Source: Prorocentrum cordatum (Eukaryota). Taken from it: a DNA stretch of 64,000 nt. The translations under genes and the position numbers were made by a program. The stretch spans positions 310,001-374,000 of the forward strand of contig CAUYUJ010000103.1 of assembly GCA_963575745.1 (NCBI GenBank), given 5' to 3'. Of the stretch, positions 6,976 through 56,799 are shown one piece after another; the first letter of the stretch is position 1; the number at the start of each line of letters is the position of its first letter. The notes beneath the pieces are model-generated. The model made no database searches, was not told the origin of the DNA, and worked only from the letters and a program-made list of their open reading frames with translations.

Positions 6976-8065
6976 GCTTGGCAGCAGCCTGGCAGCCCGG
7001 CCCCCCTGTGATAATCAGCACGCCGGGCACCCCTGTGATCTCCGCGGCTGCCCAGCAGCAGCCTGGCAGGCGCTGCTGCCCCTTTCCCTCCTCCCTCCCT
7101 CCCCTCGTCCTCCTTCCCCCTCGTGCCGGCCTCGTCTCACGTTTTTTTCATTGCACTGCGAGGGGCTCATTTGCTTGGGTCAGGGGCGCTCGCCTGCAAG
7201 CATTTGAGTTTTCAGGCCCGACGGCGGCATCGGTGCCGCCGTGTGGAAGCTCTCCTCGAGCTGCCGCCGTGTGTTCGACCCCGCCCTTTGAACGACGACA
7301 GCTCGTCTGCCTCCTGCTCTCCTTCCCCTTCCCCTCCTCGCGAGGATCGGGTGCACCTTCTGGGCCCGCGGTGGCTGTTCAGGGGCCGTTTGGTGACCTA
7401 GATACTTGCGCGACGGGTGCGGATTTACGTGAAGAAGTGGCATGTGCTCGTCAGCTTGAGAGCTCATTGTCCAAGGGCGCAACCAGCCGCCCAAGCCATT
7501 ACTTGGCTATTGGAGGGGCAGCTGTCAGATGACCCCCCCCCAAACAAACAAATAATAATAGTGGCCTTCGACCAAACTCGCCACTTTGCCTGGGCTGTGG
7601 TTCGCGAGCCTCTTGGAAGAATATGAGGAGGGTCTCTTGGCATGCCTGTCAAGGGCTCTCCGAGGGCTCTTGGGTGCATTTCTGAAGCTTTTAAGGGCCT
7701 CTTTGGGGCCGCTGGGGTGCTTCTTGGGGGCAATGGGGCCTCTTAGAGGCACCTCGGGGTCCTCCGGTGGGCTCTTGGGGCTATCTCGGGGGAAAGGCTT
7801 GAAATATCAGATCGTATTCCCATCTTTTGCTCCTCTTGGGACCCTCTTTGGGGGCCGTCGTGGGGGCCCCTGGGCCGTCTCAGGGCCCTCTTGGGCCGTC
7901 TTGGGGCCCTCTTGGGGGTTCATCGGCCGTTTTTGTGACGATCTTCTGGGTTCGTTGGGCAGTCTTAGAAGCCGTGCTTTCAAAAAATGCGAGTGTGCTA
8001 AACATGTTTTCCTAACGGAATGAGACGATATCGGGGCCTTCTCGGTGGTCCTCTTGGAACACTTT

Positions 8066-8326
8066 TGGTTCTAAAGCGCGCTGAGGGACATAAGGAGCAG
8101 AAGCGAGCGTGTGCCCGCGGCCGCGTCGGCCCAAGCGGCCGGCCGCCCAAATATGATTGTGTTTCACCGTGCGGCACACGAATGCTATCGAGACCAAAAG
8201 GACCATCTTATTTCTTAAGATGGCACATCCTCTCCTACTGGGACTATCGTTACTACGGTACAACAGAGCAGGAGCTTGGCTTCGCCTAAGGCGAAGCTGC
8301 TGGCGGGGCCTCCCAGCCCCCTTCAA
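8066..8326 (+). repeat. 5' LTR of element A
   Basis: Aligns without gaps to 27821-28076, about 34 mismatches in 256 nt by hand count. Confidence 0.9.
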
Positions 8327-8329
8327 ACT

Positions 8330-8339
8330 TGGTAGCGGA
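8330..8339 (+). promoter_or_regulatory. Primer-binding site, likely tRNA-iMet
   Basis: TGGTAGCGGA immediately after the 5' LTR; the same 10 nt occur in element B. Confidence 0.8.
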
Positions 8340-10412
8340 ACTGGCCTATGGTGGTCAGCTCTTGCTCTACTCCTCACCATCCACGGCACTATCTGGAGAA
8401 CTAAATACATGGTGGAACATCAGGGTGCAGTGGGTTTGCGCGGAGGAATGTATATAACTACGCATGATCGCAATGACACTTGCAGCGATACCTCTGCTTA
8501 CGCGGAGGTTTCCCACTTACGTCCTACATCCCTGCGCTGTTACACTCCTGAAGTCCACCCACCTATTCCAATTCGAAGTTTTATTCGAAAACACAATGCA
8601 TGGAAATATGCGATACGACGCAGCGCCGCCTCCATCCCCACGCAGACTCACGACTACACAACGGAAGCTCCAACCGACTACATCCGACCACGACTTACGG
8701 GGCCGTTGGATTTGTGTTACTATATTTGGACTCGCGTGGGTCGCTATCGGGTGTGCGGTAGGACAAATGCGTGGTGGAGGCGACACAAGAACGACCGGCC
8801 CTCACTGGGGCCCAGCCGGTCAAGTACGTTTTCGCGAATTCGCCCGCGAGGTGCATGCCTGGATCAACGTTACCATAGGCAACATGACGCCCGCCCAGCA
8901 AGCTTCAGCCTTGCCTCGAGGTCTGGGAGGTCTCGCGCGGACCATAGCCATGAGAGACCCCCCAGCAGTCATCAACTTTGGCGTTCACATAGGTGGTCGC
9001 CATGCCGACGGCGTCACCTACATCACGTTCCTCTTCAGCACGACGTTCGAGAACCTAGGAGAGAAGAGCCAACACAACTCTTGTACAGCTCTCATCGACT
9101 TCCGAGTCCATGCGGGGGAACGCATCCACCAGGCGTTAGCACGCTTCGATATAGCCCGCTATGAAGCTGAATCGGCAGGCTTCAACATCCCCAACTTCCA
9201 AATCCTAGCAGTGATATTATTTTAGAGCTCTTGGAGTGGGGGCATCGCGTGCGCAACAACTCCTGCAGCCTCTAAATACCACATGTCGAGAGACCAGCAA
9301 CAGTTTGATGCTCCACTCGAACGTATGAGGTCATATGCTCACATTGCCGAGCGAAGCCCTGGTAATGTCGGTGGTATTGTCAGTCACGGTCTCCGAACCG
9401 AGACCTTTCAAGTGGAGGCTAACGCAGGACAGCCTGCTCACAACGTCTGGAATGATCCACATCCAACTGAGACCACTGCTCTGTTGGCTCAGAATGGTGG
9501 AACGGCCTCGGGGTCGCAAGACTCCTGGACCAGGCTTCGGGGGCCGCCCGACGCGGTATCCCCCGCGCAAACCATGGCCCTAACGGCTCAGCGGGGCAAC
9601 CTGCCGAGTCCGATTTCGACCCCGGTATTGAGACCGATGCGTCTTCGGACGATGGAGCCACAGCCCACGACTATTCGGATACACCGCACTCACATCTATA
9701 CCCCTGGGTGGGTGTATGTGCGGCCGTTTTTGCGCTGTCATGTGCGCGCATGTGCGCGGCATGTGCCAGTCATGTGCCAGGCCTGTGCGGTCTTTCTTGG
9801 ATGGACTTCCTACTGTGCACGTCGTGCCCGGGCATGTGCGGGGGCATGTGCGCTGTGTTTTGATGTATCCATCATACGCACATGCACGCACAGTCCGACG
9901 CACATGCGCGCACATGCCTGCACATGCGGGAGGTGTTCGAGAATCGCAGATCTGTCATCGGCACATGCACGCACATGCCTGTGCAACCTCTCTTCGGGAG
10001 GCCGCGCGGGCCCGCACATGCACGCACATGCGGTGAAGCGCGCGGGCGCACATGCGTGCACATCCCAATGCACATGCACGCTCATGCCCTAGGAGCTGTC
10101 TGGGACCCCTGTGCCTCCAATGCCTCCTGGCCTTCGCAGAGCTAACCTGGGGCGTGCCAGGGCTTCCTGAAAGAGTTTGTTGTGCGTTTAGACTCGCCCG
10201 CTGCTGGCGGGGGCGGTTCTTCGCCCGGTTCGTGAGCTGGCGGTGGCGCGCCCGCCTAATAAAATACTCTCCCGCGCGCCTTCTCAGCTCGGCCGGAGAA
10301 GCAGGGATGGGGGGGGGGGAGGTGGAAGGGGGGGGAGGAGGGGGGGGCGGAGGAGGCGGGCGCCCCCGGCTCGGCCGGCCCGCCTGCCTGTTCGGCTCGG
10401 CCAGAGGAGAAC

Positions 10413-10503
10413 GAGGAGGAGGAGGAGGAGGAGGAGGAGGAGGAGGAGGAGGAAGAGGAGGAAGAGGAGGAGGAGGAGGAGGAGGAGGAAGAGGAGGAGG
10501 AGG
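10413..10503. repeat. (GGA)n microsatellite
   Basis: Direct read. Confidence 0.95.
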
Positions 10504-10765
10504 TGCAAGTTGCAAGGATGTCTCGGGCGAAAGTGGCTTGACGGCCCGAGCTTAGGGAATCTCGGAATCGCTGGCCTGGCTCGGCCACCGGCGAGCTCGG
10601 CCTGTGCGAATACTGTGCGTACCTGTGCGGGGCATGTGCGGGACGTGCAAGAATGCCGGGGCCAGCGTTCGTCTCCGGACGCCGGCGCGTTCGCGTCCGG
10701 CCGGTTCCGCGTGAGACGTCGTCGGCAATCTGGAGGCCGACGTGCTTTGACATGAAGTGATCTGG

Positions 10766-11684
10766 CCACCTTCGCCTGAGACATCCTCGCAACTCTGGTC
10801 TCGGAGATGCCCTGCCCCATGGTGGCCCGGCCACTTTCGCTTGAGATAATTATCCTCGGAACTCTGGGTTTCGAGACGCCCTGAGCTGAGGTGGTTAGAC
10901 CACTTTCGCCTGAGACATCCTCGCAACTCTGACCTCAGAGATCTCCTGCCCCATGCTGGTCAGGCTACCGTCGCCTGAGACATCCTCGCAAGTCTCGATT
11001 CCGATATGCCCCGAACTGAGGTGGTCAGCCACTGTCGCCTGAGACATCCTCGCAACCCTGATCTCAATGATGCCCTGCTCGATAGTGTCTCGGCCCCTTT
11101 CGCCTGAGACATCCTCGGAACTCTGGGTTCCGAGACGCCCTGAGCTGAGGTGGTTAGACCACTTTCGCTTTAGACATCCTCGCCCGAGATGCCCTGAGTT
11201 GAGCTGTTCAGGCCACTTTCGCCTGAGACATCCTCGCAACTCTGACCTCAATGATGCCCTGCTCCATAGTGTCTCGGCCTTTTTCGCCTGAGACCCTCGC
11301 AACTCTGGGTTCTGAGATGCCCTGAACAGGTGGTCAGGCCAGTCCTGCCTGAAACATCCTCGCAACTCTGGGCTCCGAGATGCCCTGGGCTGAGGTGCTC
11401 AGACCACTCTCGCCAGAGACATCCTCGCAACTCTGACCTCAGAGATCTCTTGCCCCATGGTGGTCAAGCCACTTTCGCCTGAGACATCCTCACAACTCAG
11501 ACCTCGGAGGTGTCCTGCCCCATGGTCGTCTGGTCACCTTGACCAGCGACATCCTCGCCACTCTGGTTTCCAAGATGCCCTGCCCCATGGTGATCCGGCC
11601 ACGCTTGCCTGAGACATCCTCGGAACTCTGGGTTGCGAAATGCCCCGAGCTCAGGTGGTCAGGCCACTATCGCCTGCGACATCT
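10766..11684 (+). repeat. ~65-bp minisatellite, ~14 copies
   Basis: Unit head CCACTTTCGCCTGAGACATCCTCGCAACTCTG recurs every ~65 nt; one inverted head copy at ~10508-10536. Confidence 0.95.
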
Positions 11685-14600
11685 CTGCGGCATGTGCGGG
11701 CATGTGCGTCTATGCTTTCAGAGTTTTGCTTGACCGTGCATTCGACTGTGCGTCGGACGGTGTGGCATGTGCGCGCATGTGCGGCAATGCTGTTGAGGCT
11801 TTTGTATATTTGCATGGGCATGTGCATGCGACTGTGCGGCATGTGCCTGCATGTGCGGCCCCTTCCGGACCACAATTTCAAAGTGAACACTATAGAAGTG
11901 AGCGCTATAGAAGTGAGTCCGGTGTATGCCTACATACCTCACGGAAGAGCAACAGGCGCAATGTTAATGTTTGGGATGCCAAACACATGAGCGCAGATGG
12001 AGGCGATTCGCAATGAAACCAGTCCGCAAGGTACAGCGTATCGCACGACGAGCACTCAAAGGAAAAGGCAAGGGTCGAAGTACGGGCAAAGGTAAGCGTC
12101 GGCGATCACATGGTAGAGGCATATTAGCATTCCTAGCATCCCTTACAGGGCCACAGTGTGAAGAAGTGTTTTAGGTGCAGGCAGAAACCACAGGTATACA
12201 TCAGGAAAAGGTAGAGGACGTCGGGGAAACCCGAAGGATGCAAACGGTCAGATTATGGAGTGCGACATATGCCACAGCACACAGCACTTTCGCCGCGAAT
12301 GCCCTCAAGGCGATGGGAGAGGCAGGGGTCCGTCAATACATCTGGCTCAAACTGACTCCGACATGCAGTATGTTGACTGGGGTCTCTTTTAGCTGACCCT
12401 GCCGGTAGCTCAGCTGCAGTTGTAAACTTCATGGCTGCCGGATACCTTAGCGCCAGTATGGCCCTCGAGAGTTGCGCCGGCGCGCTGTTCGTGGTGGCGT
12501 TCACTGGCCACAGCGATGCCGATCTGGCAGAATGGCTAGGTATACCCATCGCGGGGCAAACTGCAGATATTGAATTCGTCGGGAACTTCCACATGCCCGC
12601 CGAAGGAGATGCAGACATGGCGGGGGCACCCGCGAATTCAGAAGCCACTATTTCTGCAACAGACGAGGAAATACAGTTGATGCTTCATCCTCGGGTTATT
12701 GGAAATCCGACAAACATGGAATGGAGTGACGAAGGCCTTTTGCGGGGAAGCCCGCGCGACGTTCGTTATGTGTCTGAGCGCATTCAATATGAGCCTGGCC
12801 ATGATGAAGATTTTCGACGCACATTCGTCGCATCGGCCGCTCTATGAGCCGCCGGGAGCGATCGGCAAGTCGCCAGGTCTGGATGAAAAGGTATAGCGCC
12901 GATGATGACGACGAAGAATGGGAAGACGACGCTCGTCTGGTACGCCGCGGTCGGTTTCCCAGTCGGTCACCCAATCGTGCGCGCGCGCGCCCCAGCGGCG
13001 CTCGCTCTAGCGGCCTTCAGCGCCCTCATCCTCTTGATGCGGGTGCTCCAAAAGCTTCTCCATGGCAGGCCGGGGGGCCTGGCGCCCCCCTGGGGGGGGC
13101 CGCCTGCGGGGGCATCCGCTTCAAGAAGATCAGCCGCAAGAAGAATATCCAGAGGGCGGAGTACAGCGCTTGTTGGCTACGCGGAAGCGGGGTTGGCTCG
13201 TCAGTACATGCCCCCAGGTTAGATGCGTATTGGTTGGGCTCGGTTTGGGCTGAGCATCAGATCCGCCACTGCTATTCTCTTCAAACGAGATGATGACGGC
13301 GAGATCATTCGCTCGACAATGACAGGACCTGTCAAAACACAAGCAAAGATTGCCAATCGCGACTTCAAGGGAAGTGTCATCGAGAAACGGAAGCTTTAAT
13401 TACAGAGGTGTTCGTTGCACGTGCCCCGAATATGCCTGCCGCAGGCCCGGCTGCCCCGTGGGGCGCCCATCAAGAAGCCCGAACTTTAAGAGGACACCGC
13501 GGGTTTGTTCTCATGGTGATTGTCGGGGTTACTGCACCGATCCTAATGAAACGCCATACGAGGCAGTTGGCGGAAGCCGACTACGAGTAAGCAGCGGTCA
13601 GTGAAATATTCCAATCTATCCAGATATGGAAAAGCCTTTCACCTCCTCATTATTCGAAGCAGTTCAATCGCGACTGGCACGCGGAGCACGCGGGGAAATC
13701 TGGTCCACTCAAATCAGAAGAAGATGATCGGCAAGAAGCTGATGAAGATAAAGATGGTGAGATGGCCGAAGCGGTGGACGCCGCGGGAGAAGCTCTCGAA
13801 GGGCACGCCTCAGACGACTCCATTGTCGGGGACGTCACGTGCGAAGCGGGCGCCCCTATAGATCCTGACGGTGCCGTCGCAGCAGAAATGGGCCTTTCTC
13901 CTGGAAGAAGGATTGCCCGCCGCGCTGGAGGGGTAGGTTGGATCAAGACCAGCATGGAACAAATGTTTTAGCTCTACCACGTGCCTCTTGGCCGAGGAGC
14001 AACAGGCCATTATCCGCAATGTGGCCCTCAGAATGCCGAGCGGCATCGACCTGGGCCCTGACCGGGGCCCCGTGCGATATGGGCCATGGGCACGGGCAGG
14101 GGCAGCGGCTGAGGCAGCCCCCAAGCCGAAGCCAGTTCTGCCTATTGATACTTCTCCATCTTCGGATTCGTCGAGTCCGTCGCTCGTCCTGATCAGCTCA
14201 GACCGCCGCCCAAGCAGAAGAAGAGGAAGAGCCCAGATGGCCCTAACCCAGAAGACAGCAAGCAGCAACGACCTGCGGGGCAACCTGCTGACAGACGTCG
14301 ATCCAGAGGGCCAGCGGTGGCTGCCGCAGCAGCTGCGTTTCAAGGCACCAGCGCACCTGCTCCGAAGGGCCCTGCACCGCGTCGCGGCCCTGCGCTGGGT
14401 CGGGCGCGCGGGGCTGGCTGGATGCCGGCGCTGGAGGGGCCATCAAGGGTCGCTTCTTCAACGCGGCGAAGCACGGGCAATAATTTTTTGGAGACGGGCA
14501 CCAGGGACAGCTCCCAAATAGAAGACAGCCGAGCACTACAACATCAATGACAAGAAACGCCAGGACTTTAACATCAGCGCCCCGCCAGGGGCTCCACGGG

Positions 14601-15049
14601 CGCCTAGGGGAACAGCAGGCGCTGCCTCATCATCGGCAGGCGCTCATGCACCCGCAGCATCGGCGACGGCCCAGAGTTCAGCGGGGCAACCTGCTCAGAG
14701 TTCTGCAGGGCAACCTGCTCAGAGTTATGCAGGGCGACCTGCTCTTACTTTGGAGGTGCCCGTCGATTGCCGGCAGTATTGGGGTATTCTACGCATTTCC
14801 AATCGCACGCGGATCACCCCAGCATACCATCCTCAATTTGATGACGGGCCTGATCGATACATCGCGGTGAAATGCGACCTCGAGGGCGCCGCCGTCCTCG
14901 CTGCCAAGGACGCTCGCACGCGCCAGATGGTGCGTAATAGTTTTACGTATACGCTCGATGGTCACGTGCGATTCGGAGAAGGGCGACTTGATTGGGATCC
15001 TCGACGTTGAGAACATCAAAAGGCCAACGTTGAGCCTGGAGGAGCAGCG

Positions 15050-15775
15050 CCGCTGCTCAGAGTGGCTTACGACTGCTCTTCGCCACAAACACTTTCATCG
15101 CAACTATCTCTCTGATAGGTTCCTGCGAGCAGTGCCGTCCTTCGACGAATTCGATGGGTGGGTTGAGTTATCAGAGCTGCCAACCACTGGCCACCTGAAG
15201 GACATGATTGGTATCAGCACAAACACCTGGAGACTGTGCGCCAGCGGCTCCAGATGCGGCGCTGGGCATGCCAGGCTTTAGCTGTGTAGAACCTGACTGG
15301 CATGGTCGACCATGCTGGAATGCAGAACAACTACAGGCTGCAGCTCAATAAGTGCCAGTGCGCCTGAGTCGCACGAGACGTATTCCATCCGCCCAAGCAA
15401 CGGACGCAGTAGCCTTGCGATAAAGTGCCCTGAGTCATTGTATATGAGAATGACAAATATGATTGTTCCAGGTGCACCTTGAGATTTTATTCATGGTACT
15501 CAGTGGGCTAGCATCGCGAATATATTTAGCATTGGGCTGTCGTGCCGCGCTGGCAACACCAGCAAGGAGGGGGGCAGACAGTTGGTTCATGCTTGCCCAT
15601 ACCCAGCATGCGACAATAGAATCCACCTCGGCTTGCGCGTTGACTCCGAAGTATTGGTTATGGTTACTTTGAAGAGCCTGCTTCGGGATAATCTGCCGAT
15701 TTGGCGCTCGGCAAATGATGTTATAATGTCAGCAGGTCGGGGCGGCAGAATTCCTCCGACTCACATCTTTCAGCT
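15050..15775 (+). pseudogene. Tpt1/KptA-like RNA 2'-phosphotransferase domain within element A
   Basis: Ordered motifs SEWLTTALRH, DGWVEL, NYRLQL, IRPSNGRS, FIHGTQWASIANIFSIGL, GRQLVH, GLRVDSEVLVMV, WRSANDVIMSAGRGGRIPP. Local frameshifts and stops are present. Confidence 0.8.
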
Positions 15776-17122
15776 GTTAGGTACTCTACCCAGCGAAAAT
15801 TGCAAGTGCAATCGCGTGGGGCACGTAGGGATCGAACCCATGTACCTGTGGAACATCAGTCAGCAGTATCCGTGCAGTGATATTTCTATCGAGAGAATGT
15901 ACAATTTCCGGAGTGATGCATCATCTTTGATAGATTCGTTTATCCAAGAGACACCCTCCAATTTGAAGTACCCCGAACTGACGCCCATCCAGGGAGTCGA
16001 GTCTTCAATCGTGTTCATGATGCAGGACACGTACCAAGCGGGGGCACCTGCACGGGGATCTGATGGATCTTGGATACAGGCCCAAAGTGCGGACGTGACA
16101 GGTGCGACTTCAAGTGGCATTACTCCCACCGACACGCTATGCGCCAACGACCCGTGGCGTGCTCCAGTGCAGCAGCTGCCAGTACTTGCAGGGCAACCTG
16201 TGTCGTTCGCACCTATGAGCCGAGCCACAACTCCATTTGGGGCTCCACAGAGTGCTGGGAGCACCAATAGCCTGCAGGCATGGCCCCAACGCATTCGGAT
16301 GGACCCGCAGCTCTACCAGGCTTTGCAGGCGACGTCGCCATTCGCATCGCCGCGCCCACATGCGGGGCCACCTGCTTTTCCTGATCGCCACGCTGCACAG
16401 AGGATCGAGAGCTTAGTTGGTCAGCCAGAGTGGATGTACCGGCAGATGCCCGAAGCCGCTCAGAGCATGCGAAGGGATGGCATCGACCTCCCTAGCGCCA
16501 ACTGGACGCCGCATCCGACATGCGATCCGACTGCTGCAGAACGCCCCACAGCAGCACCGATGGACTTCCCAGTGTACCCTGACTATCACGCTCAGGTAAG
16601 TGGTAATCCTCGTGTGGGGGCGCAGCCGGGAAACCCGTATGTACGAGCGACGGCCGACGACTGTTACGCGGTGGGAGTATGTTCCAGACTCAGTTGACGC
16701 GCGGCTCGGGTTACGCGTCAGGCGTGCCGGGCCAGATTCTTCATTGTGGATATTTGGCCGCTTCTATGGATTCAGATGTGCAGCAGCAGGCCCCAGGCCT
16801 TGTAGCGCCATCATCCATGGGGGAGCTGCGCCCAGAGATTCTGGCCGCTCATGAAGCGCAGCAGGCCAACATCGCGATGCAATCAGCCCGCCAGGGTCGC
16901 AACCATGAGCGTCAGGTACGCAGGATGCTGGGCCGTGCGGGGCAACCAGCTACTCCAAATACAGCAGGGGCACCTGCAATTAACCCGGCAGCACTTGCAG
17001 CAATGCAGCTACCGTCGGTCCCACCGATTCGATATGAAGTTGGTGAAACCACTCTGGGGCGCTAGACGCGTATCAGGCCACCGGCAGCACCGGCAATCAT
17101 CAGCGACGGCGGCTTTAACACG

Positions 17123-17293
17123 TGCGCCATATGCTTGGACCACTTCATGGATGACGACGAGGGGGGGGGGAGGTTTTAGTGTGGTCACTTATTCAATGCA
17201 CTGTGCTGGGACCGAGTTGCACATGCTCATGTGGGCAGACAGTTGGCTGGCAATATGGAAGGTACCGCAACAGAGGCACCCTGCGCCATCTGC
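17123..17293 (+). pseudogene. RING-H2 finger, copy 1 (frameshifted)
   Basis: CAIC..CGHLFNALCW..CAIC. Confidence 0.7.
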
Positions 17294-19173
17294 AGGGGCG
17301 TTGGTTTAATCACAGCTGAGTTGCATTATGCCCTTGCTGGGGATCAGGATGCACTGGGTCGTCGTGGAGAGATACTCCGAGGGGCTCACGAACTCAGGGA
17401 CCTTCGCGAAGAGCTCAACCGCGTCACGGCAATGATGATGCACAACAAGGCAGCCCCTACAACAACACCAGCGGGGCAACCTGCGTCATTAGCCAGAGCG
17501 GTACAGGCGACGGAGGCCACCGCGCCCGCTGTGGATACGCCTATGCCACTAATAGCGGAGACTGCCAACAATGCAGGGACACCTGCTGCAACCGCACCAG
17601 CCGCGGTGCCGGTCAACGACATGTAGTTGAGGCGATTGGGGAGAGCCACCGACAGGAGCGCTCGGTGGCCTCGGTCTCCACATACCTGCATGCCACGCGG
17701 GCGAGTGCATCAGTGGCATCAGTGCGATATCCGAGCGCGACATGCTGCATAGTGTGTTCACGGTGAACACAGATGGTCAGATGGGCATGCGCGCTGACAA
17801 AGATGCGTTCCTGAACATGCCTGCCGCGTCTGCATCGCGCCCATGCACGTTTAACGAGCATCCCACGGCCTGGATCTTCGAGAAGAGCCCCATTGCGGAA
17901 GAAGGGGCCCGTGGATACATGCACGTTTTCCCATCTCTGTCAAGAACCGACTGGGTGTTGGAGCAGAGGCGCCGCAGGGGCATGTATGGTACGACGCTGT
18001 CTGAGATGCCGGTGTTGTTTGGAGAACGCCATGTCTTGGCTCTGGCAGCAAACAGTGGAACAATGGTGGATGGCATGCTAACAATCCTTCTGGGCATTGG
18101 CAGCAACATCAACATCATTGGTTTGAAGACGGCACAGACATTCGAACAGGTATTCCGTTCCCACGACACGCCATCAAGGAGCTGTGCCTGGCGAAGAGTC
18201 TCTACTTGCCGGGAGTGGGACATGGTGCCTTTGTATGTGAAAAGTCCTTGCGCCGCAAGGTTGCGTGCAAGGAAAGGGGGGACCTGGCGGGGGCACCTGC
18301 TGTGCCGAGACTTGATACCTACTCAGCGAATGTGGCTGAGGGTTCAGGGGGGAACCTCCCTGCTATTCTGGGTTTGCGGAGCATGTCCAACATGGGGATT
18401 ATCCTGAGCCTGGAGCAGGGGCGCAAGAAGATGGCCACCCCTGGCCCTGGGACTCCACAGAGCGCTGGGGGCGCCAATAGCCTGCAGGCGAGGCTCCAAA
18501 GCATTCGGATGGACCCGCAGCTCTACCAGGCTTTGCAGGCGACGTCGCCATTCGCATCGCCGCGTCCACGTGCGGGGCCACCTGCTTTTCCTGATCGCCA
18601 CGCTGCGCAGAGGATCGAGAGCTTAGTTGGCCAGCAAGAGTGGATGTACCGGCAGATGCCCGAAGCCGCTCAGAGCGTGCGAAGGGGCGGCAGCGACCTC
18701 CCTAGCGCGAGCTGGACGCCGCCTTGGGAGTATGTTCCAGACTCAGTTGACGCGCGGCTCGGGTTGCACGTCAGGTGTGCCGGGCCAGATTCCTTATTAT
18801 GGATATGGCCGCCCCTATGGATTCAGATGTGCAGCAGCAGGCCCCAGGCCTGGTAGTGCCATCATCCACGGGGGAGCTGCGCCCAGAGATTCTGGCCATT
18901 CAAGAGGCGCGGCAGGCCAACATCGCGATGCAATCAGCCCGCCAGGGTCGCAACCATGAGCGTCAGGCAAACAGGGCGCTGGGCCGTGCGGGGCAACCTG
19001 CTACTCCAAATACAGCAGGGACACCTGCAATTAACCCGGCAGCACTTGCAGCAATGCAGCTACCGTCGGTCCCACCGATTCGATATGAAGTTTTTGAAAC
19101 CACTCTGGAGCGACAGACGCGTATCGGGCCATCGGCAACACCGGCAATCATCAGCGTCGGCGGCTTTAACAAG

Positions 19174-19341
19174 TGCGCCATATGTTTGGCTCACTTCATG
19201 CATCGCGACAAGGTCTGGAGGTTTTAGTGTGGTCACAGATTCCATGCACTGTGCTGGGACCGAGTTGCACATGCTCATTTGGACAGACAGTTGGCTGGCA
19301 ATATGGAAGGTACCGCAACTGAGGCACCCTGCGCCATCTGC
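19174..19341 (+). pseudogene. RING-H2 finger, copy 2 (one in-frame stop)
   Basis: CAICLAHFMHRDKVWRF*CGHRFHALCW...APCAIC gives the C3H2C3 ligand pattern. Confidence 0.82.
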
Positions 19342-20159
19342 AGGGGCGTTGGTTTAATCACAGCTGAGTTGCATTATGCCCTTGCTGGGGATCAGGATGC
19401 ACTGGGTCGTCGTGGAGAGATACTCCGAGCGGCTCACGAACTCAGGGACCTTCGCGAAGAGCTCAACCGCGTCACGGCAATGATGATGCACAACACGGCA
19501 GCCCCTACAACAACACCAGCGGGGCAACCTGCGTCATCAGCCAGAGCGGCACAGGCGACGGAGGCCGCCGCGCCCGCTGTGGATACGCCGACGCCACTAA
19601 TAGCGGAGACTGCCAACAATGCAGGGACACCTGCTGCAACCGCACCAGCCGCGGTGCCGGTCAACGACATGTGGTTGAGGCGTTTGGGGAGAGCCACCGA
19701 CAGGAGCGCTCAGTGGCTTCAGTTTCCACATACCTACATGCCATGCGGGCGAGACGCCCGTCCGCGCAGCCAGCGCAGAACGCAGAGCCCGGTGAGCGTG
19801 CGCAGTGGCATAAGTGCGATATCCGAACGCGGCATGTTGCATACTGTGTTAATGGTAAACACAGATGGTCAGATGGGCATGCGCGCCGACGAAGATACGT
19901 TTCTGAACTTGCCTGCCGCGCGTGCATCGCGTCCACGCGCGCATGACGAGTATCCTACGGCCTGGATCTTCGAGAATAACCCCATTCCGGAAGAGGAGGC
20001 CCGTGGATGCATGAACGTTTGCATATCTCTGTCAAGAAACGACTGGGTGTTGGAGCAGAGGCGCCGCAGGGGCATGTCTGGTACGACGCTGTCTGAAGTG
20101 CCGGGCTTGTTTGGAGAACGCTACGAGTTGGCTCGGGCAGCAAACAGTGGAACAATGGT

Positions 20160-20620
20160 GGATGGCATGCTAACAATCCTTCTGGACATTGGCAGCAACA
20201 TCGACATCATTAGTTTGAAGACGGCACAGACATTCGAACAGGTATCCCGTTCCCACGGACACGCCATCAAGGAGCTGAACCTGACGAAGAGGCTCGACGT
20301 GTCGGGAGTGGGACATGGTGCCGCGGTCTGTGGTAAGTCCTTGCACTGCAAGGTTGCGCGCAAGGAAAGGGGGGACCTGGCGGGGGCACCTGCTGCGCCG
20401 AGACTTGATACCTATTCAGCGAATGTGGCTGAGGCTTCAGGGGGGGGTCTCCCTCCTATTCTGGGTTTGAGGAGCATGTCCAAAATGAAGACTATCCTGA
20501 GCCTGGAGCAGGGGCACGAGAAGATGATCATCCCTGGCTCTGATCTGCACAGGCTTCCACTTGGAAAGGGTTCCAGAGAGCTTGATCTGATGATGGCGCC
20601 CCCTGCGCATCTGGCACTCA
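20160..20620 (+). pseudogene. Retropepsin-like aspartic protease of element A
   Basis: ILLDIGSNIDII (Asp at 20185), VSGVG flap, LPPILG. The upstream duplicate has D>G (LLGIGS). Confidence 0.75.
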
Positions 20621-22560
20621 AGGATGACGAGTGCGGGGCCGGGACTGAGGATAAAAGGGTCAATGTCGTTTACAATTGCGGCCGATCCTCAACGCGAGGA
20701 TGGCCCGCTACTTGACAGAGAGGCATCTGATCCAGAGCCAGCCGCTGGGGCACCTGCTGTGAGTGATGCCCACACATTTATGATGCCACAGGATACCAAG
20801 GGCATCAGCCATTCCATCAACGAGGAGACGCTCGCTTCCACGATCCAGCCTGGTGAATAGCATCATGAAGACCTGGCATCGCAGGGATGCGTCCTTCAGG
20901 ACCAACCCCACCTCTGCCGATCAGGACTTCGCTGTGCGCAACTTGCAGGCGAGGGTATATCAGGATTCTTACGAAGGGGGGCGCAAAGTGGACGCCGCCC
21001 GAAGCACAGGCAGGGACACTTGCGGAAGCGGCTGATCCCGCCGAGAAGTTCGATATCTCTACTTCGAGCAGCGGCTCTGCAGCGCAGCATGGCACGGGCA
21101 TTTGGACGCCCCCACCGCCAAATGAGCGACGTGGGCAGGCGCGTGCCACGGCCGCCCGCGCTTGCACGGACAGGCCGGCCGCTCAGGTGCTGTCATCAAG
21201 TGCGGGGAAGCCTGCGTTCTTTTCTCAGGCGCCCGCTGCGCGCGCCAGGGGCAGCGGCAAGCCTGGCTGCGCGGCTGCCGCGGATAGCAGTGGTCCCGGT
21301 TGTGTGGTCGCTGCAGAAAAAAGAGTCCATATCGCATCATTCTCATCATCGTGCATTTGTCATTGAGGATCTACGGACAGCTCGCGCTGAACTCCGAGCC
21401 TGTGGTCATGTGTGACCGTATTACACATGCAGAGGTCATGGCCTCCACTGTTTCACAATATTTGGGTGTCTTACTCTCGGGTGGCTACAAACTGTTATGG
21501 ATGGCAAAACCGGCTGGTTGGCACGTGAGACCGCCTGGAAAGCGGGCAGGAGCACACTTGCAACGCATCCAAATCTTGATGACTGAGGCTCGGGCTCTGC
21601 GCATGACTACTGCGCTTGCGGGGCCACCAGGATACTTCTGCAAACGGGGTCCCATACGAGACGCTACTGAAGATCTTGACTTGCAGGTCATGCGTATGCG
21701 ATTCTGCCATTTCGGTTTGAAATACGACCGTTCTAGTCAGTTGCCTAGCGGATCCCGACGCACCTGTAGAGGTGCACGTGTAAGACAGCAGGGGAACCTG
21801 CGCAACTTACTGAGCGTGCTCTGGATTGGCGTGGACAAGGGGCTTAGAAGGCCGAATGGCGTAACAAGACGTTAGCTATCATGACTGCAAGGTTGCTTGG
21901 TCAAATTGACTTACGCAAGACGCAGAGAAATCACACAAGTGCTGCACACCATAGCACTTACACTCGAGTGGATACATGAGTTCGAACTTACGTTCGGTCT
22001 TCGAACAACAGCCCTGAGTGGGACCATGTCGCCCGACGGGTAACGGTGAACCTGGATGATAATTCGATCGTACAAGGCATCAAGATCCAGGACCAGCCTA
22101 TCGGGTACAATTACAATGCGCCGTTACTGGATGGTGTAACCAACATCCGTACTCGACTTTACTGGGGACAGCCCGATCCGGCTCCCATCGGATACGGGGG
22201 CCCACGTCCACGCCGAAGACGCCGAAGGAGCCCAGTTCACCTGATGTTGCGCGACAGATTGACCAGCGGACAGCATTACCGACCGATGCCCGAATCAAAC
22301 AAAAAGAAAAACAGCAAGCAGACAAAGAAGCGGGCATCAGACCACGCAAGATACCCAAGATAGTCGAAGAAGGCAGCGATGTTTGCGGAGATGACTTTAA
22401 AGGATTAGGATGTGGCGCGTATTATACCGACGCACCCCTTGACTCCGACGCGGAAAGCGTTGATGAGGAGGAGACTTTCATCGCATTATTTGCGGGGTGA
22501 CTTGCTGAACCTTACGCAGATTTATGCTCCATAATCCCCACCTTGTGCTATGGGCGTCCC

Positions 22561-23200
22561 AACAAGGTGGACGTGTTGGAATTATGTGGAGGAAGTGGAG
22601 GTATGCCGCAGCTAGCATTCAGCCGAGGTTTGTCTTCGAGGGGAAACCTCGACGAACGCTCCTTTGTTGACCTTGGAAACAAGGATGTACAGGTTGCTGT
22701 GGTGCACTACCTAGACGTTTGTTTCGTCAATGTTGTCATATTACAACCCAGCTGCAGAAAGACTGGACTTCCTTCCTATTTCAATGCTCAGGTAAACTAC
22801 GATAACTGGTATGAGCATCACAAAGAAGATCTGCCGCATATCAAGTTTTGTGATAAGGTTGTTATGCGTCAGAACGGTCTTCGACGGTTTTCATGTACGA
22901 AAACAACCAGTGGGTACTTGGGTGGATCAGATACCACCATGGACTTCACTGGCCAAATGCAAGGGCACTTGCACGGTTAATATGGTCCAATGCACTACTG
23001 GCTTACGCGATTCCCACGGGATATTGATACGAAAGTCGACCGAGTTCATGGCCAACCACCGCTTTCTTTCTACCCTATGTGAGCAAAGACGATGGGCTGG
23101 TCATCATCAACACGCGTCGGTATGCAACAGAGAACTGCCCATGGCTGCACAGTGCACTCCAAAGATGCAGTCGCTCTTTGCCGATGCAGTTCAGATCGCA
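22561..23200 (+). pseudogene. C5 cytosine methyltransferase-like domain between PR and INT (element A)
   Basis: DVLELCGGSGG (motif I-like), ILQPSC (IV-like), RKQP (VI-like), VQCTTGL..KST (VIII-like). One frameshift. Confidence 0.7.
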
Positions 23201-23969
23201 CACGATCTCTTTCAGGTAAACCGTGACCCCTTCCATGGTCACCCTTTTCTTCCACCGTGTTAGTCACCAACCTGAGAGGATATGATTTGGACGATCCGAC
23301 TTTGCCTCGGCAGCTCGACGGCTCGATCGTGAGACCACTTTCGGGAGGGCTCGGGTGTCCCGCACGCGCAGATAATGTTAAAATGCGCTATCCCTCGCAT
23401 GACAGAAATCCCAGGCATTGTAGGTGGTATGATAAGGAAGACTACCATTGGGAATGTCAGAGCTGCAAGAAGAACTACGGCCAGAACAAGCCCGGGCATG
23501 TACTAGCACCTGGCAAATGCAAGTTTGCCAAACCCCGGAAAATACTTGGCGCTCATGGACAGGTACCACCGGCTCCTGCCGAACCGGCAGCAGGACCTGA
23601 ACCGCCGGCCCCTGCTGAACCAGCAGCACCACCACCCGAGGCGCCTGCCGCACCACCGTTCACGCGGCTAAGAGCACCAAGACCCGGCTCTAGAGCTTGA
23701 CCTACAGCGGGCGCAAGCAGTCACGATATTTCAGTAGGCAGACATGTTGTTAAACCTGCTGCAGGGCCACCTGCCTCGAGCGGAGCTGGAAGTTCGGATG
23801 GCCATCCCGGACTACCACAGGTTAGAGTCAGACGTGGCCGACAGCAAGGTGGAGATGCACCTCTTCCGCCACCAGCGGGCTTTTTGCTGCACGACCACGA
23901 TTTCCAGACTGGTCACGGTTCAACGTTCAAATCAGTTCACAACATTTCCGAAGCTTTGACCCAGGCGTG

Positions 23970-24660
23970 GTAACACGCGAGTTGCGGAAGCTACACTTGC
24001 GCTGGTTCCATGCGGAAGCGCTTAAGATGAGACTCGTCTTAGCTAAGGTAATCTGGACAACGTCAGACTCAACCTGATTAAAGGTGTCTGCGACACATGT
24101 CGGGAGTGCAGGGCTCGTGACCAGCCTGGGCATACTGTTATGCCCTCCACTGGGCTGCCTGGAAAAGTTAACGAAGAAGTGGAATGTGACGTGATGTTTT
24201 GTTATACAAGAACACCGGATCTTTCATGTCATCGACCGTTGTATTCGATATGTGGCCGGAATGGAGGTTCCAGACAAGACGATGGCCATAGTTCTAGATG
24301 CATGTCATCAGTGCTGGATGCAGCTTGGACCTGCAGAGGTACTCAACTCCGACGCAGAGGGCGCCCTCAACAACGACACTGCGAAAGCAGTTCTTAAGGC
24401 AAAGTGCATTGAACTCAGGGTACGTGCGCGTGGACAGCGCGCTGCGACGATCGAAGCCAGAAATGGCATATCACGCAATCTACTTCATGTCATGGAAGCT
24501 GAACTCAGCAGGTTGGACATACCTCTTGTGTTCACACGATTAATGCACGAGGCCTTGTTTACCGCCAGCGCGCTCACTTTCTACAACGAGGTGTCTCCAT
24601 GCAACGCTCTGTTTGGACGGCAACCATCAATGCTTCCGGACTTACCTGTCTTGGACCATT
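23970..24660 (+). pseudogene. Integrase of element A
   Basis: LRKLHLRWFHA..CDTCREC (HHCC), VECDVMF, SDAEGA, IEARNG. Frameshifts present. Confidence 0.85.
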
Positions 24661-25919
24661 AGCAGCCGACGGCAACGTCGGATCATTCTCGTGGACAGAC
24701 GATGCGCAAGGTATGCGTTGAAGCAATCACACAGGCCACAGCAGTAGCTAAGACCAATCGTGTCTTACGCACAAAGACAACTGTCACGGGTCAGCATTAC
24801 TACGATGAAGGAGACTTGGTCGATTGTCATCGCCCCACAACCGCGAAGGACTACAGGGGAGGCTGGAATGGCCCATTCCCAGTTGCAAAGAACGATCCTG
24901 GCAGGGGTCAAGTCATCATCCGAGTGGGCAAACGAGATATTCAGGTACAGTACGACGACGCACGGCATTCACTCTATATTGAAGCACTGATAGCCCGGGA
25001 AATTTTTCTCCGACAGCGCTGCACTACGGACAGCGTTGACGTTCGTGGCGAGTTTGCCAGCGGGGAGACCTGCCATGTCATTCGGCTGTGTACCGACCAA
25101 GAAAGGGACGCTTCGAATTACGAGTGCAAGCCGTTTATCTCTTAAGGTACACGTAGCCTTACAGCACCTTACTAGAAGCTTCTTCCGCATCGAGAACGTC
25201 GTTTTTGTCAAGTTAGCTAAGAGTATCCATAAGCTACCTCCGGTTGCCTACGCTGACAGCTGCGCATTGGCCCACTATGGCAACGGCGTGGGTCCAGGAT
25301 TTCACTACTATGAAGCGGAAGGCATCGCGCTGAACATACACGACATAATTGGATCAACACATTCGATAATAATCCAGCGCCTAAAGTCCACCAGACCTCA
25401 AGGGGCGTGACAAGGTTTACGAAATTGGCGGATGCACTGGCGCCGGGTGGAACCGCAAGAGAAGCCTCAGAAACCGAACCACCACATGAGGATGGACGGG
25501 GGTTTCTACGATCTACGAGGATTTCGAGGCTGGTCTCGAGTCACATGTCATGGAAGTGTGGCATGCAGAACTGCAAGATGAAAGGGAACTGCTGGAGGCA
25601 ACTCCGCGAGAGGACCTTTTCGCAATGCCCGCGCGGATGGTTCCAGACCAAAGTGCGTTGATCACTGTAGCTGATGATCAGCGGGGGGGCCTGCCTAAGC
25701 GGGGGCGCGCGCGCGACTCCGACGCCGAGGATGCGCATTACGTCCCGTTATTTTTCATGGTCGAAGACTGCAGCTACGGACTGGACTCAGACGGAAATGC
25801 GCAGCATGTAGAACTCTGCTTCACGGCAGGAATGTCAAAGGTAGTCCTGTCCGAACAACAACGCATGATACTAGATGCCGACCGTGTGACCACTATGCGA
25901 GTATAAGTTACCGCCGCTG

Positions 25920-27664
25920 CAATGCGAGCAGCGGTCGTCAAGGAAGACGACCTCCTCGCGAAAGTTGGCATCCAGGCGAATCCCGAGAAAGTATCGAAGG
26001 CCCTCTACACTGAATTCAAGACATGGTTTGACAAAGAGTGTTCCAAAACGCAAGACATATCTAAAGCGTCAAACATCTTGGCTTCGAGGTATGCGCACAT
26101 ATGGAGGCTTGTGTGAGGAACGAGAAGGGCGAGATGGAACGCGCCATCCGATTGCGCCGGGTACCCCGAGATCACATGGACCTTGAAGCCCTCGATGTAG
26201 AAACTTTGTTCAGGAACAGCGCGGCGGTCAAGCCGCGGACTACTCGCTAGCACCGCAGCGTGCAAGAAGCAATGGATCATTGTTTCCCCCTACATCAACA
26301 TGGCCTTCCTGAAAGGGTCGGCCTATCAGGAACTTGCTGAGGCAACTGGTGGAAAGGAGCGCGTGGCGTGCTTTACTTTGCCGCCTGGATCGGCCGCGGT
26401 GCTTCGGACTCTCCCAGGGTTCGAACCTTACGACGAGTCAAAGCATTGCTTGCAGTGCTTGGAACCAGGCACTGGCACCAAATATGCACCGCGAGCTCTC
26501 TCACTGAAGCGCAGGAGGGCCGCTCGAGGCTTTGGTCTCTGACCCGCGTCCTACGACGAGGAGTTCGAGACGAGCAGTAACCTGCTTACGGTCAAACATG
26601 TCGATGATATTATTGTGGCTGGCGCTGAAGACACCGTTGACAAGTCTGTCAAGCGTGTAGAATGCACTTTTGGTAGGTGTAAATTCAACGAGCACACATG
26701 CACCAACTGTGCTGTGAGATATATTAGGTATGAGGACGGCGATGTTACTTTGGACCAGTGCGAATACATGAAGCAGCTCCATCCTGCACAGCGTCTTGAA
26801 CTTTCTTGCGCCGGCGCTGGCGCCCAGGCATCCAAGATGTCTGCGTGCGCGTTCGTCAGCCTCTGGGGAGCGCTGGCGTATGCATTAATCACCCATGTGT
26901 GGTGGATGGTGTATGTTGTATCTCTACAACACGTCCAATAACCTACAAATGGTCAAACACGACGACTGAAAGTGATCGCTATGAAGCAGCATGCCTGCCC
27001 CAATAAGATCGTCTACCAGGCGATGACCCCTACGGGCGAGGTTGACCTGCACAGCGACTCAGGATACCGACGCGTGAGTGGAGACGCCGATGACGACGTC
27101 AAGGGCTATGGTATTCGCGGGGCAAGCCTGCTACGGCGTGGAAAAACGTTATTCGGTAAACCTGTCGTCGACTTCATCGACGCGCACTGCAAGTCTCGCC
27201 GCTTGCAGGTCCGCTCGATTTATTCAGCAGAGACACTAGCAGCATCCCATAATATGGAGGACTGTTATCCCACGATCGTGGCTCTGCACGAGCTCCACGC
27301 GGGGCCGCTCGCGCCCACTCAGTTGAAAGACATACTTGAGTTGGGTGGCGTGAGCTTCGAAGTCACTTTGACCATAGATGCGGAGTCTGTTTGTAAGTCC
27401 TTGTCAAGCAAAGACTTGAAGAAGCAGACTGCGTGCACCTTTTTAGGACACATAAGTTGGATACGACAAATGATGGAGCGTGAAACCGTGCACAGTGTTC
27501 ACTGGTGCGACACCCGCGATATGTCTGCGGACGGTCATACCACGGGGAGCATCGACAGATATATGCTCCTACAGGTCATGAGAGGTATACAGGCCTTCAA
27601 GCATGACCTCAACAATCATACTCCATATCGGGCTGGCCAGACATCTGGTTATGTAGCCGCCTGA
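25920..27664 (+). pseudogene. Reverse transcriptase + RNase H of element A (copia type)
   Basis: INMAFLKG, GTKYAPR, KHVDDI (26594-26608), then SDSGY, AETLA, IDAES, MSADGHT. Several stops and frameshifts. Confidence 0.88.
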
Positions 27665-27815: not shown

Positions 27816-28077
27816 GGCGACTAAAGCGAGCTCAGGGACCTAAGGAGCGGAAGCGAGCGCGTGCCCGCGGCCGCGTCGGCTCAAGCGGCCGGCCGCCCAG
27901 ATATGATCGTGCCTCACCGCGAGGCGCACGATTACAATCGAGACCAAAAGGACCCTCCAATTGTTTAAGATGGCACAGTTTCTCCTACTGGGACTATCGT
28001 TAGTACGGTACAACAGAGCAGGAACTTGGCTTTGCCTAAGGTGGAACTGCTGGTTGGGCCTCCCAACCCCCTGCAAA
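27816..28077 (+). repeat. 3' LTR of element A
   Basis: Direct repeat of 8071-8326. Confidence 0.9.
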
Positions 28078-29739
28078 CTTTTTGGGCCGTCTCGGGGGCC
28101 TTCTGGGCTGTGTTAAAGTCATCTTGGGTCCTCGTGGGGCCATTGGACCGTCTCGACGCTCTCTTCGACTGTCTTGGCGTTTTGTCTGAGCCCGACTGGA
28201 GCGTTTTGGAGGTTCCGGACGCCCCAGTGATGCGTTGACAAGTTCGTCCCCCCCCCCTCAAACGGTATTTGGGGCCCCAGGGGAGGGGGAAAGAGGGAGG
28301 GGGGCAGCCAAATGTCTCACATTGCGGGGGTAGGCGGATTCTGAAACCGCACTTTCATGCAATTGCCCTCTGGTGCTGTCAATCGCATATGAGTCGTTCA
28401 CAGTTTGCCTGTGCCTCAATCTTCACCTCCTCCGCATAAGTTGTGTGGATCAAGCTATATGATGAAAAGCCATGCGGTCCAACGTGTGGTGGTGCGAAAC
28501 CTGTGGCCCAATCGTTGCAGCCGCCCGGGGGGGCACTCGCGTGGCGCCCACGGGCTGGCACCGCGTGAATCCCCGGCAGACCACCCAGCGCACGCGGCGC
28601 CCACGGGGCCCACGGGTGCACACCCGGCGAGACCCTGGCGCACTCGCCCCCGCACGGCGCGACCACGGGGCGTCCACGACCAGCCAGCAACGGGCACCAG
28701 GCGAAGCACCGGCGGACCCACCCAGCGAACGCGGTGCCCACGAGGCGCCAAAGACAGGCCACCGACCGGGCACCAGGCGAAAGCCCAGCGGACCAATTCA
28801 AGGACCGACCAAAACGTTGTTTAGCTTGGCTCGGGCATTTGTTCTTTCGTGTCTGTTTCGTTTGGCTGTGGTGTTTTGTTTCAGTTCGATGTGTCTGAGT
28901 TTGAACGTTATCTTGCTCGCGTTCCGATGTTCGTTTTTGTTCTGCTGCATCTCCAAAGTTTTGTTTCAGTCGTTGTTTTGTATGCCCCAATCACTGCGCG
29001 TCTCGTTTCGGTTTCCGTGTTGTTTGCGCCGTCGGTGTCTTCAGATCTTCTGTTTGTGTTTGGTGTGTATTCGTTTTTGCTTTATTTGCGTTTCTTTCTC
29101 CTTGAGATCACTTCGCACGCCAGATAAGAACCCCTGAGTGCATTTTAATCCGGTGAATATGTGTGCATGTGCATGTGCACATACATACAGCGAGGAGACA
29201 ACAGGCGGCACCGTGGCGAGACCCCGTCTGACATACGTACCTAGCGCACGAGGCGGCCACGGGCGGCGATGTGGCGACACCTCGACGGACCAGCCCAGCG
29301 CACGAGAGTGCCACGAGTCTGCCACGTGCGACAGCGGGGTGAAACCTCGCTGTACCCAGCCGGCGCACGAGGTGGCCATGAGCGGCAATGTGGCGAAACC
29401 GCGCCCTCGCCAAAACCATCAAAATCTTTGGTGACAAACGAAGTAATGACCCCTAAGGGGAATTACTCTTTGCGGAATATGCACAGCCATATCCTCACAT
29501 ATGTGTGCATGCAAGTTTGCGCGTCTGCGCACATGGCAAGCTTTAGGACATTCAGGCAATCTGGCGAAAGGGGGGATCGGGAAGAGTATCGGAGGGACTA
29601 GCGGGAGGAAGGGCGGAATAGGGAGTTCGTCGGAGGGAGAACGAGCGGGAGGAGGAGGAAGAGGAGGAACGGCGCCAGGCGCGATCCAGGCCTGGGCGGT
29701 TTGAGCGTCTTGTTCCAACGAAGCGACGCAAGATATTTT

Positions 29740-34612: not shown

Positions 34613-34669
<57 letters not shown>

Positions 34670-34976: not shown

Positions 34977-35039
<63 letters not shown>

Positions 35040-50045: not shown

Positions 50046-50048
50046 AGA

Positions 50049-56790: not shown

Positions 56791-56799
56791 TTTCGTGGA

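Follow-up and report, generated by a model that had tools for sequence, protein, structure and literature searches.

The window analysed here is a stretch of 64,000 nucleotides from Prorocentrum cordatum (GenBank assembly GCA_963575745.1, contig CAUYUJ010000103.1, positions 310,001 to 374,000 of the forward strand), and all coordinates below are counted from its first letter. It is repeat-rich eukaryotic DNA with a GC content of about 53–64% across most of its length. Two direct repeats, at 8071–8329 and 27821–28079, enclose a series of coding remnants, among them a domain similar to the RNA 2'-phosphotransferase Tpt1/KptA. The region 8071–28079 is probably a single old and decayed retrotransposon of the Ty1/copia type, flanked by long terminal repeats (LTRs) and about 20 kb long. 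The Tpt1 enzyme, as described in PMC6097658, moves a 2'-phosphate from within an RNA to NAD+; both steps of the reaction require the residues Arg-His-Arg-Arg, and these are essential in the Runella, yeast and E. coli enzymes.

The Tpt1 domain in the window

The Tpt1 module of the window consists of five parts, listed here with the database relatives (P0003 and others) to which they align.

14702..14938, + strand: conserved N-terminal extension of the module (CRQYW...RYIAVKCD...), aligned with P0007 (61%), P0006, P0046, P0047, P0056 and P0073
14940..15179, + strand: first part of the Tpt1 N-lobe (ALRH, DGWVEL), 65% identity to P0007 and 58% to P0003
15188..15364, + strand: second part of the N-lobe in a shifted frame, with TAG at 15287–15289, 59% identity to residues 109–166 of P0006
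15360..15800, + strand: Tpt1 C-lobe (NAD+ lobe) with IRPSNGRS, HGT, GRQLVH and SAND, and TGA at 15480–15482; PF01885 positions 70–177, 65% identity to P0004, PDB matches 7yw3 and 7yw2
15801..16235, + strand: conserved C-terminal extension in the same frame as the C-lobe (GSDGSWI at 16056–16076); P0045, P0083 and P0088 are in frame up to 16118–16235, at 39–44%

The Tpt1 motifs are situated at 15075–15086 (ALRH), 15153–15170 (DGWVEL), 15387–15410 (IRPSNGRS), 15489–15500 (IHGT, with HGT from 15492), 15573–15590 (GRQLVH) and 15705–15722 (RSANDV). YRL lies in a different frame (NNYRLQLNK) and is aligned with the KNRLQLK / KQRFEL position of the relatives. Thus all motifs listed in the preliminary description of this locus are present at or near the positions given there, with YRL in another frame. 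Such a set is far beyond what chance would give. The domain does lie at 15050–15775, as had been described, and the conserved module proves to be wider, about 14702–16235.

With its three stops translated as X, the frame from 14871 to 16697 reaches 39.3 bits (E-value 9.1e-10) against the Pfam family PF01885 (PTS_2-RNA), for which the curated gathering cut-off is 26 bits. The match spans profile positions 70–177 of 177, and the stop-free open reading frame (ORF) 15483–16694 by itself scores 28.8 bits. A phmmer search of PDB with the window peptide yields tRNA 2'-phosphotransferase 1 only (7yw3, E 1.6e-6; 7yw2, E 1.5e-4). The Arg-His pair of ALRH is aligned with the LRH of eight canonical Tpt1, and the catalytic candidates in ALRH, IRPSNGRS and GRQLVH fall into the canonical motif columns. 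All four candidates for the Arg-His-Arg-Arg residues are present, in agreement with the earlier claim.

Compared to the intact relatives P0003, P0006 and P0004, the window copy has frame changes near 14938/14940, 15179/15188 and 15360/15364 and two in-frame stops, TAG at 15287–15289 and TGA at 15480–15482. Since three frameshifts and two stops leave no intact reading frame, this copy is a dead pseudogene. The N- and C-terminal extensions are in frame even in relatives of 39–44% identity (P0045, P0083, P0088).

Relatives of the module

A word-indexed protein search yielded five close relatives among 182 candidates, with identities of 49–81%; one of them, P0003, is an uninterrupted protein of 284 residues. 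The PF01885 scores are 45.9 bits for P0003 (profile positions 28–173), 40.1 bits for P0004 and 29.6 bits for P0005, and P0006 matches positions 3–83, LRH included. In PDB, the relatives match TRPT1 only (phmmer). Searching 1.84 billion cluster representatives with a profile built on these five sequences produced 323 matches at E≤1e-3, of which 100 reach E≤1e-10 and 22 reach E≤1e-30. The best matches are short fragments of about 60–280 residues. For ten top matches the origin was looked up; they derive from a EukProt set under the label Pyramimonas sp. and from metagenome assemblies of ENA and JGI. A weak member, P0188, is annotated as a partial protein of the dinoflagellate Prorocentrum cordatum. 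Among the 150 profile matches listed, 131 map to the window by tblastn, and the Tpt1-related ones are all within 14708–16235. The absence of the domain from other copies had been named in advance as grounds for abandoning the prediction; the Tpt1 domain is found in many of them.

The Pfam analysis of 35 longer matches revealed PF01885 in 33. Twenty-six of these score 95–510 bits and are ordinary Tpt1, some with fused domains, whereas seven, at 25–51 bits, form the clade of the window. The clade differs from canonical Tpt1 also in two clade-specific insertions, of about 11 and about 22 residues, within the RNA lobe, in the N- and C-terminal extensions, in being multi-copy, and in its position on a separate branch. 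In a quick maximum-likelihood tree of the longer clade members, constructed without the shorter fragments and the canonical P0146 and P0149, 14 transposable-element-type rows are split from 24 canonical ones by a branch with the SH-aLRT support of 100.

When 87 clade members and fragments are aligned, the catalytic columns are occupied by R52 in 32 of 33 rows, H53 in 26 of 32, R155 in 36 of 41 and R217 in 25 of 37; the fourth position of P0003 is Ile. These columns line up with LRH, IRAxQGHS and RxHVH of the eight canonical Tpt1. The clade, which is previously undescribed, is distinct, multi-copy, deeply diverged and conserved, its members mostly keeping Arg-His-Arg-Arg and the HGT and SAN(D) motifs.

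The canonical matches have peculiarities of their own. P0086, P0116, P0138, P0185, P0151 and P0183 contain two to four tandem Tpt1 domains or fusions to an RNase_T exonuclease or to a prolyl-oligopeptidase-type hydrolase.

Predicted fold

The predicted structure of P0003 has a mean pLDDT of 71.7, with 84–95 in the N-lobe and poor values in the C-lobe. Its 20 best Foldseek matches are all Tpt1/KptA, with low TM scores (0.19–0.26 on the query, 0.28–0.34 on the target). In the AlphaFold model of P0045 the C-lobe has pLDDT 86–96, and all 21 Foldseek matches at E≤1e-3 are Tpt1/KptA, the best being 7yw2 (E 3e-10, TM 0.55 on the target, root-mean-square deviation 4.0 Å); this model is biased to the Tpt1 fold, because the alignment used for modelling contained canonical Tpt1 rows. 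The two-lobe architecture, a winged-helix RNA lobe and an NAD+ lobe of the ADP-ribosyltransferase (ART) fold, is present according to the profile coverage of P0003 and P0006 and the models of P0003 and P0045.

The closest enzyme is eukaryotic TRPT1/Tpt1 (7yw2 from mouse, 7yw3 from human, 7yw4 from yeast), the best match of the module both in sequence and in fold. The likeness consists in the two lobes, the LRH / IRxxxGxS / HGT / RxxVH / SAN motifs and the catalytic candidates. The lack of a PTS_2-RNA or ART-fold match would have counted against the identity given in the preliminary description; instead, there is a PF01885 score above the cut-off and an ART-fold match of a relative's model, and by all sequence and predicted-fold criteria the domain is to be assigned to PF01885.

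The element around the module

The framing of the element is defined by the following features.

8063..8068, + strand: TTTTGG, candidate target-site duplication, 5' side; the hexamer ends 2 nt before the aligned repeat start
8071..8329, + strand: 5' LTR (conserved core), a 259-bp direct repeat, its end set by the primer-binding site at 8330
8330..8344, + strand: primer-binding-site-like TGGTAGCGGAACTGG, directly 3' of the 5' LTR
27821..28079, + strand: 3' LTR (conserved core), direct repeat with the 5' LTR
28080..28085, + strand: TTTTGG, candidate target-site duplication, 3' side, directly after the 3' repeat

In the self-comparison, 8071–8330 and 27821–28080 are 87% identical over 260 nt, and nothing is alignable past this core. 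The 10-mer TGGTAGCGGA occurs in the window exactly twice, at 8330 and 50049, each time directly 3' of a 5' LTR; the chance expectation is 0.13, and two matches were seen in none of 100 shuffles. Since it is common to the primer-binding position of a second copia element and no shuffle reproduced the pair, 8330 is taken as the primer-binding site and 8071–8329 as the true 5' LTR. No tRNA genes were found in the 64-kb window. Given the 2-nt offset, the TTTTGG pair provides no more than moderate evidence for a target-site duplication.

The second element, at 49882–56273, is a young, compact and intact copia of 6.4 kb. Its LTRs (49882–50048 and 56108–56273) are 98.2% identical, and TGGTAGCGGA at 50049 is its primer-binding site. 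The gag ORF (50088–51920) contains zf-CCHC (23.1 bits) and the protease motif DSGA, and the pol ORF (52481–56044) contains RVT_2 (38.7 bits). It shows no tblastn similarity to the large element at E≤1e-3.

The coding remnants of 8071–28079, all on the + strand, and the repeats between them are as follows; the five parts of the Tpt1 module are those given above.

8458..10092, + strand: gag-like coding region, assigned by position; one frame is open save for a single stop, P0179 matches 8986–9081 at 69%, no Pfam match
10695..11683, strand not assigned: 65-bp satellite-like array within the element, by repeat families D8/D9 and by self-BLAST
12261..12302, + strand: CCHC zinc knuckle CDICHSTQHFRREC, C-x2-C-x4-H-x4-C as read in translation, not scored by Pfam
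13398..13785, + strand: Cys-rich knuckle with an acidic stretch, ahead of the Tpt1 module, weak collinear tblastn match to P0188 residues 9–48 and 79–126, E 7e-4
16238..20542, + strand: two tandem copies of a unit of about 2.1–2.2 kb (16238–18449 and 18448–20542), 89–93% identity in self-BLAST
17123..17299, + strand: RING-H2-like finger, copy 1, with N at the fifth ligand position; RING families below threshold, best 18.2 bits
19174..19347, + strand: RING-H2-like finger, copy 2 (CAICL...CGHRFHALC...CAICRG); ten RING families below the cut-off, zf-RING_11 at 23.3 bits, E 5.2e-5, cut-off 27
20100..20640, + strand: retropepsin-like region (DIGSN at 20185–20199), by motif reading, no Pfam match
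23991..25383, + strand: integrase-like region, decayed (H..H / CDTCREC), by motifs, no rve match
25502..27661, + strand: copia-type reverse transcriptase (RT) and RNase H (HVDDI at 26597–26611), by RVT_2-bearing relatives

Each of the two RING-H2-like fingers is broken by a stop. The tandem-unit counterpart of DIGSN, at 18093–18107, reads GIGSN. For the retropepsin-like region, the atlas leads are to clusters of RVP, RVP_2 and Asp_protease_2 (0.83–0.85).

The RT region has 33 relatives at E≤1e-3, and 16 of the 33 carry a precomputed PF07727. The closest one, P0008 (66–68% identical), scores 47.6 bits against RVT_2 and P0038 scores 48.9 bits, the cut-off being 31.6; the window RT itself has no Pfam match, so that the RVT_2-type assignment is made via the relatives only. 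The read-through of the window RT and integrase matched neither RVT_2 nor rve, and phmmer against PDB with the RT gave nothing. The N-terminal parts of P0010, P0017 and P0038 map to 24492–25383, upstream of the RT. The Pfam scans of the window covered 150 + 53 stop-free ORFs. Given the repeat pair, the primer-binding-site-like sequence and the RVT_2-bearing relatives of the RT, the setting proposed for the domain at the outset, an LTR retrotransposon whose RT is of the copia type, is supported.

Two further candidates from the element were rejected. A possible S-adenosylmethionine-dependent methyltransferase at 22579–22755 (ELCGGSGG, then QPSC, similar to motifs I and IV) yields only Cons_hypoth95 at E 0.28, the chance level. 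A mir-466 match in 7800–28300 (Rfam, E≤1) is likewise due to chance. A dinoflagellate spliced-leader motif has two matches with 3 mismatches against 2.04 expected, which is evidence neither way.

Does the module belong to the element family?

Several observations link the module to other parts of the element. In P0179, the Tpt1 N-terminal extension is joined to gag-like sequence (8986–9081, 69%), and in P0148, sequence similar to 20485–20628 is joined to the middle part of Tpt1. P0188 is weakly collinear with 13398–13523, 13636–13785 and 15387–15578. Further, the tetrapeptide AGQP occurs 12 times in the six frames of the window against 2.3 expected, the maximum in 50 shuffles being 6. Ten of the twelve fall within 9424–19530 on the + strand, in what appear to be coding frames of the element, and other family members likewise have AGQP at the module borders. 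The motif may mark a recurring site in a single polyprotein, for cleavage or docking.

In run X1 (apparently DNA, share 0.25), where contigs were placed at a likeness of at least 80% and the summed depth is not equal to copy number, 22,318 contigs fell on 8001–28000, covering all 30 bins. The summed depth is highest at the gag and integrase–RT ends, about 825–2500 with the satellite bin excluded. Single variants are common to 13–16 contigs in the Tpt1 span versus 29–44 in the RT span.

A number of points weigh against the module being part of a copia-type family. The X1 summed depth is lowest at 12.7–16 kb, 126–414 versus about 960–2040 over 22.7–28 kb, which may fit the module being present in only some copies or being a nested insert, or else weaker conservation. 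P0148 and P0179 may be assembly artefacts of repeats, or rearranged copies. Tpt1 and RT together between LTRs are seen at one locus only; among proteins of 456–2000 residues, none of 874 candidates has the fused form; and the second copia of the window lacks Tpt1. Pfam is blind to the RT, integrase, protease and gag of the window copy, the RT being named via relatives and the rest via motifs. The duplicated TTTTGG is 2 nt off on the 5' side, and the LTR termini lack TG...CA. The Pfam scans of the element revealed no RNA ligase, 2H, macro or Nudix partner, and in the window there is no self-cleaving ribozyme and no Rfam family at the gathering score. Since the searches of the element revealed neither a ribozyme or tRNA gene nor an RNA ligase or a partner for ADP-ribose processing, the sequence indicates no specific substrate.

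Two scans outside the protein set added nothing to the family. The scan of viral contigs for the Tpt1 clade found none. A metagenome locus of 1556 nt retrieved by the C-lobe alignment scan (L001, 38% over 47 residues) was rejected, since by its ORFs it looks like an unrelated bacterial contig.

From one full-length locus and the indirect evidence from the family, Tpt1 is likely to be an integral accessory domain of the element.

Alternative explanations

The best-surviving alternative is that the 12.7–22.6 kb block, comprising Tpt1 and the RING fingers, is another repeat or a captured and amplified fragment of a host gene, either nested in a copia element or transduced by it, and playing no part in retrotransposition. 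The depth minimum over 12.7–16 kb is in its favour. Moreover, in canonical copia elements, including the second one here (6.4 kb), the protease is directly followed by the integrase, and DPAGSS at 12389–12412, after the zinc knuckle, could be a decayed first protease, by motif reading, which would place the block between protease and integrase. However, self-BLAST shows neither terminal repeats nor duplications that belong to the block itself, its strand is that of the RT and its decay is similar. The fragments described above link pieces of Tpt1 to gag-like and protease-like sequence, and AGQP is common to the block and the gag part. Finally, clade members that are about 40% identical keep open frames of 250–280 residues, the catalytic positions and both extensions, and hence long-term constraint is indicated rather than a dead passenger. 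We consider a nested passenger unlikely.

Less probable still is a counter-defence enzyme, that is, a Tpt1 of the element that, instead of servicing its RNA, ADP-ribosylates or dephosphorylates nucleic acids or signalling nucleotides of the host and, in concert with the RING finger, blunts host control. The RING-H2-like finger, of a class that includes E3 ubiquitin ligases, indeed lies downstream in the same coding direction. KptA and ART domains are described as common in virus–host conflict systems, with KptA in a few RNA-virus polyproteins (PMC9503650), and members of the Tpt1 family, TRPT1/KptA among them, can ADP-ribosylate 5'-phosphate ends (PMC12678800, PMC10415124). On the other hand, both the complete set of Arg-His-Arg-Arg residues and the RNA lobe are what the 2'-phosphotransferase reaction uses.

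That the module is an ordinary multi-copy host gene family with copia parts adjoining by coincidence is very improbable: P0188 is annotated, as a partial protein, in a dinoflagellate genome and all database members are short and without context, but the window module is a pseudogene framed by LTRs and a primer-binding site, thousands of short and divergent contigs repeat it along with the rest of the 20 kb, and the branch with the support of 100 separates the clade from the 24 canonical Tpt1.

A possible role of Tpt1 in the element

The module is thus best regarded as, probably, an accessory module of this copia-type lineage, not a stray host gene. Directly supported here are the domain, its fold, the catalytic positions across copies, the multi-copy status, the framing by LTRs and the primer-binding site, the copia-type RT and one dead element. 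The module (about 14702–16235) lies between the gag/zinc-knuckle part and the integrase–RT–RNase H part, and in active elements the Tpt1 domain would be made within or alongside the Gag-Pol polyprotein and would act, with NAD+, on a phosphate in the nucleic acid of the element itself.

As the reaction, we favour in the first place that Tpt1 takes an internal 2'-phosphate off template RNA or primer tRNA joined by a plant/fungal-type RNA ligase, as such a phosphate would hinder reverse transcription. The 2'-phosphate left by plant-type RNA ligase is reported to impair reverse transcription, and Tpt1 is used to remove it in library protocols (PMC8782182). Because replication of the element depends on reverse transcription, carrying the Tpt1 activity into particles would be a gain for it. 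The second choice is ADP-ribose capping of 5'-phosphate ends of RNA or cDNA, and the third-ranked one is the host-directed counter-defence with the RING finger. The broader suggestion, that a lineage of giant (about 17–20 kb) copia-type elements of marine algae or protists may encode an active, Gag-Pol-packaged Tpt1/KptA that frees the elements' own RNA, primer or cDNA of 2'-phosphates or caps the 5'-phosphate ends with ADP-ribose, is tentative, and we consider it less likely than not.

Comparison with known systems

The large element resembles Ty1/copia in its LTRs, the primer-binding site starting with TGG, the CCHC gag, the integrase-like sequence upstream of the RT and the RVT_2-type relatives of the RT. 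Unlike Ty1/copia, it is about 20 kb long, not about 5–7 kb, with roughly 11 kb of additional + strand coding remnants between the zinc knuckle and the integrase (Tpt1, the RING-like fingers and a second protease-like domain), and the window RT is too divergent and decayed for a Pfam score.

Canonical Tpt1 is encoded by a single cellular gene, whereas the module is found in a retrotransposon. The closest precedent, described by Iyer et al. 2022 (PMC9503650), is KptA in the large polyproteins of a few positive-strand RNA viruses and KptA of jumbo phages, where it is thought to service RNA ends or repair RNA for a selfish replicon. The carrier here differs in being a reverse-transcribing LTR element; the words retrotransposon, retroelement and reverse transcriptase do not occur in that paper.

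Captured cellular enzymes that persist as accessory domains in the coding sequence of retrotransposons, across many copies in algae or protists, are described for SymbioLINE-Dnmt, SymbioDIRS-Dnmt3 and KnitGypsy-Dnmt3 (de Mendoza et al. 2018, PMC5890265), in which DNA methyltransferases (DNMTs) were captured by dinoflagellate LINE and DIRS elements and by charophyte Gypsy elements. Here the enzyme is an NAD+-dependent phosphotransferase rather than a DNMT, and the Copia superfamily of Symbiodinium is without a DNMT domain according to the same source, in the searched text of which Tpt1 is not mentioned. Other accessory domains reported in LTR elements are a chromodomain and a DnaQ-like exonuclease (Morozov et al. 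2019, PMC6338049). In the literature searched, with subscription journals, Repbase notes and supplements outside its scope, we found no report of Tpt1/KptA in a retrotransposon.

One more protein is of interest in this respect. P0172, of 1513 residues, from an ENA metagenome contig, combines a canonical-type Tpt1 (123 bits) with a HaeIII-like C5 DNA methyltransferase (108 bits). Its C-terminus looks RT-like by eye, with no Pfam match at E≤10 and no PDB match, and is regarded as a lead. The protein may be a further, independent case of Tpt1 tied to retroelements, those that bear a DNMT, and hints at more than one recruitment of Tpt1 by retroelements.

Other features of the window

Between its integrase and RT parts, the pol of the second copia contains an unassigned stretch, LLLIGSPMC...HEHP. 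Besides the 65-bp array of the large element, satellite and low-complexity arrays are present elsewhere in the window: an array of about 100-bp units is situated at 38351–40422 (38.3–40.4 kb), and long triplet-periodic purine-rich arrays and a (CTTAG)n pentamer array are among 34200–35200, 56200–56800, 58327–58581 and 61300–63500.

Significance

What Tpt1/KptA is for, beyond tRNA splicing in fungi and plants, has long been puzzling. No retrotransposon-borne Tpt1 is reported in the literature searched, and this lineage seems to carry one, kept through deep divergence. If the interpretation is true, this would be the first retroelement-encoded RNA 2'-phosphotransferase and would add a new enzyme class to the few accessory domains of LTR retrotransposons. 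It would also provide a natural system in which the substrate of Tpt1 must be the RNA, primer or cDNA of a retroelement, and would suggest that reverse transcription can be limited by the chemistry of 2'- or 5'-phosphates where a plant/fungal-type RNA ligase is used by the cell.

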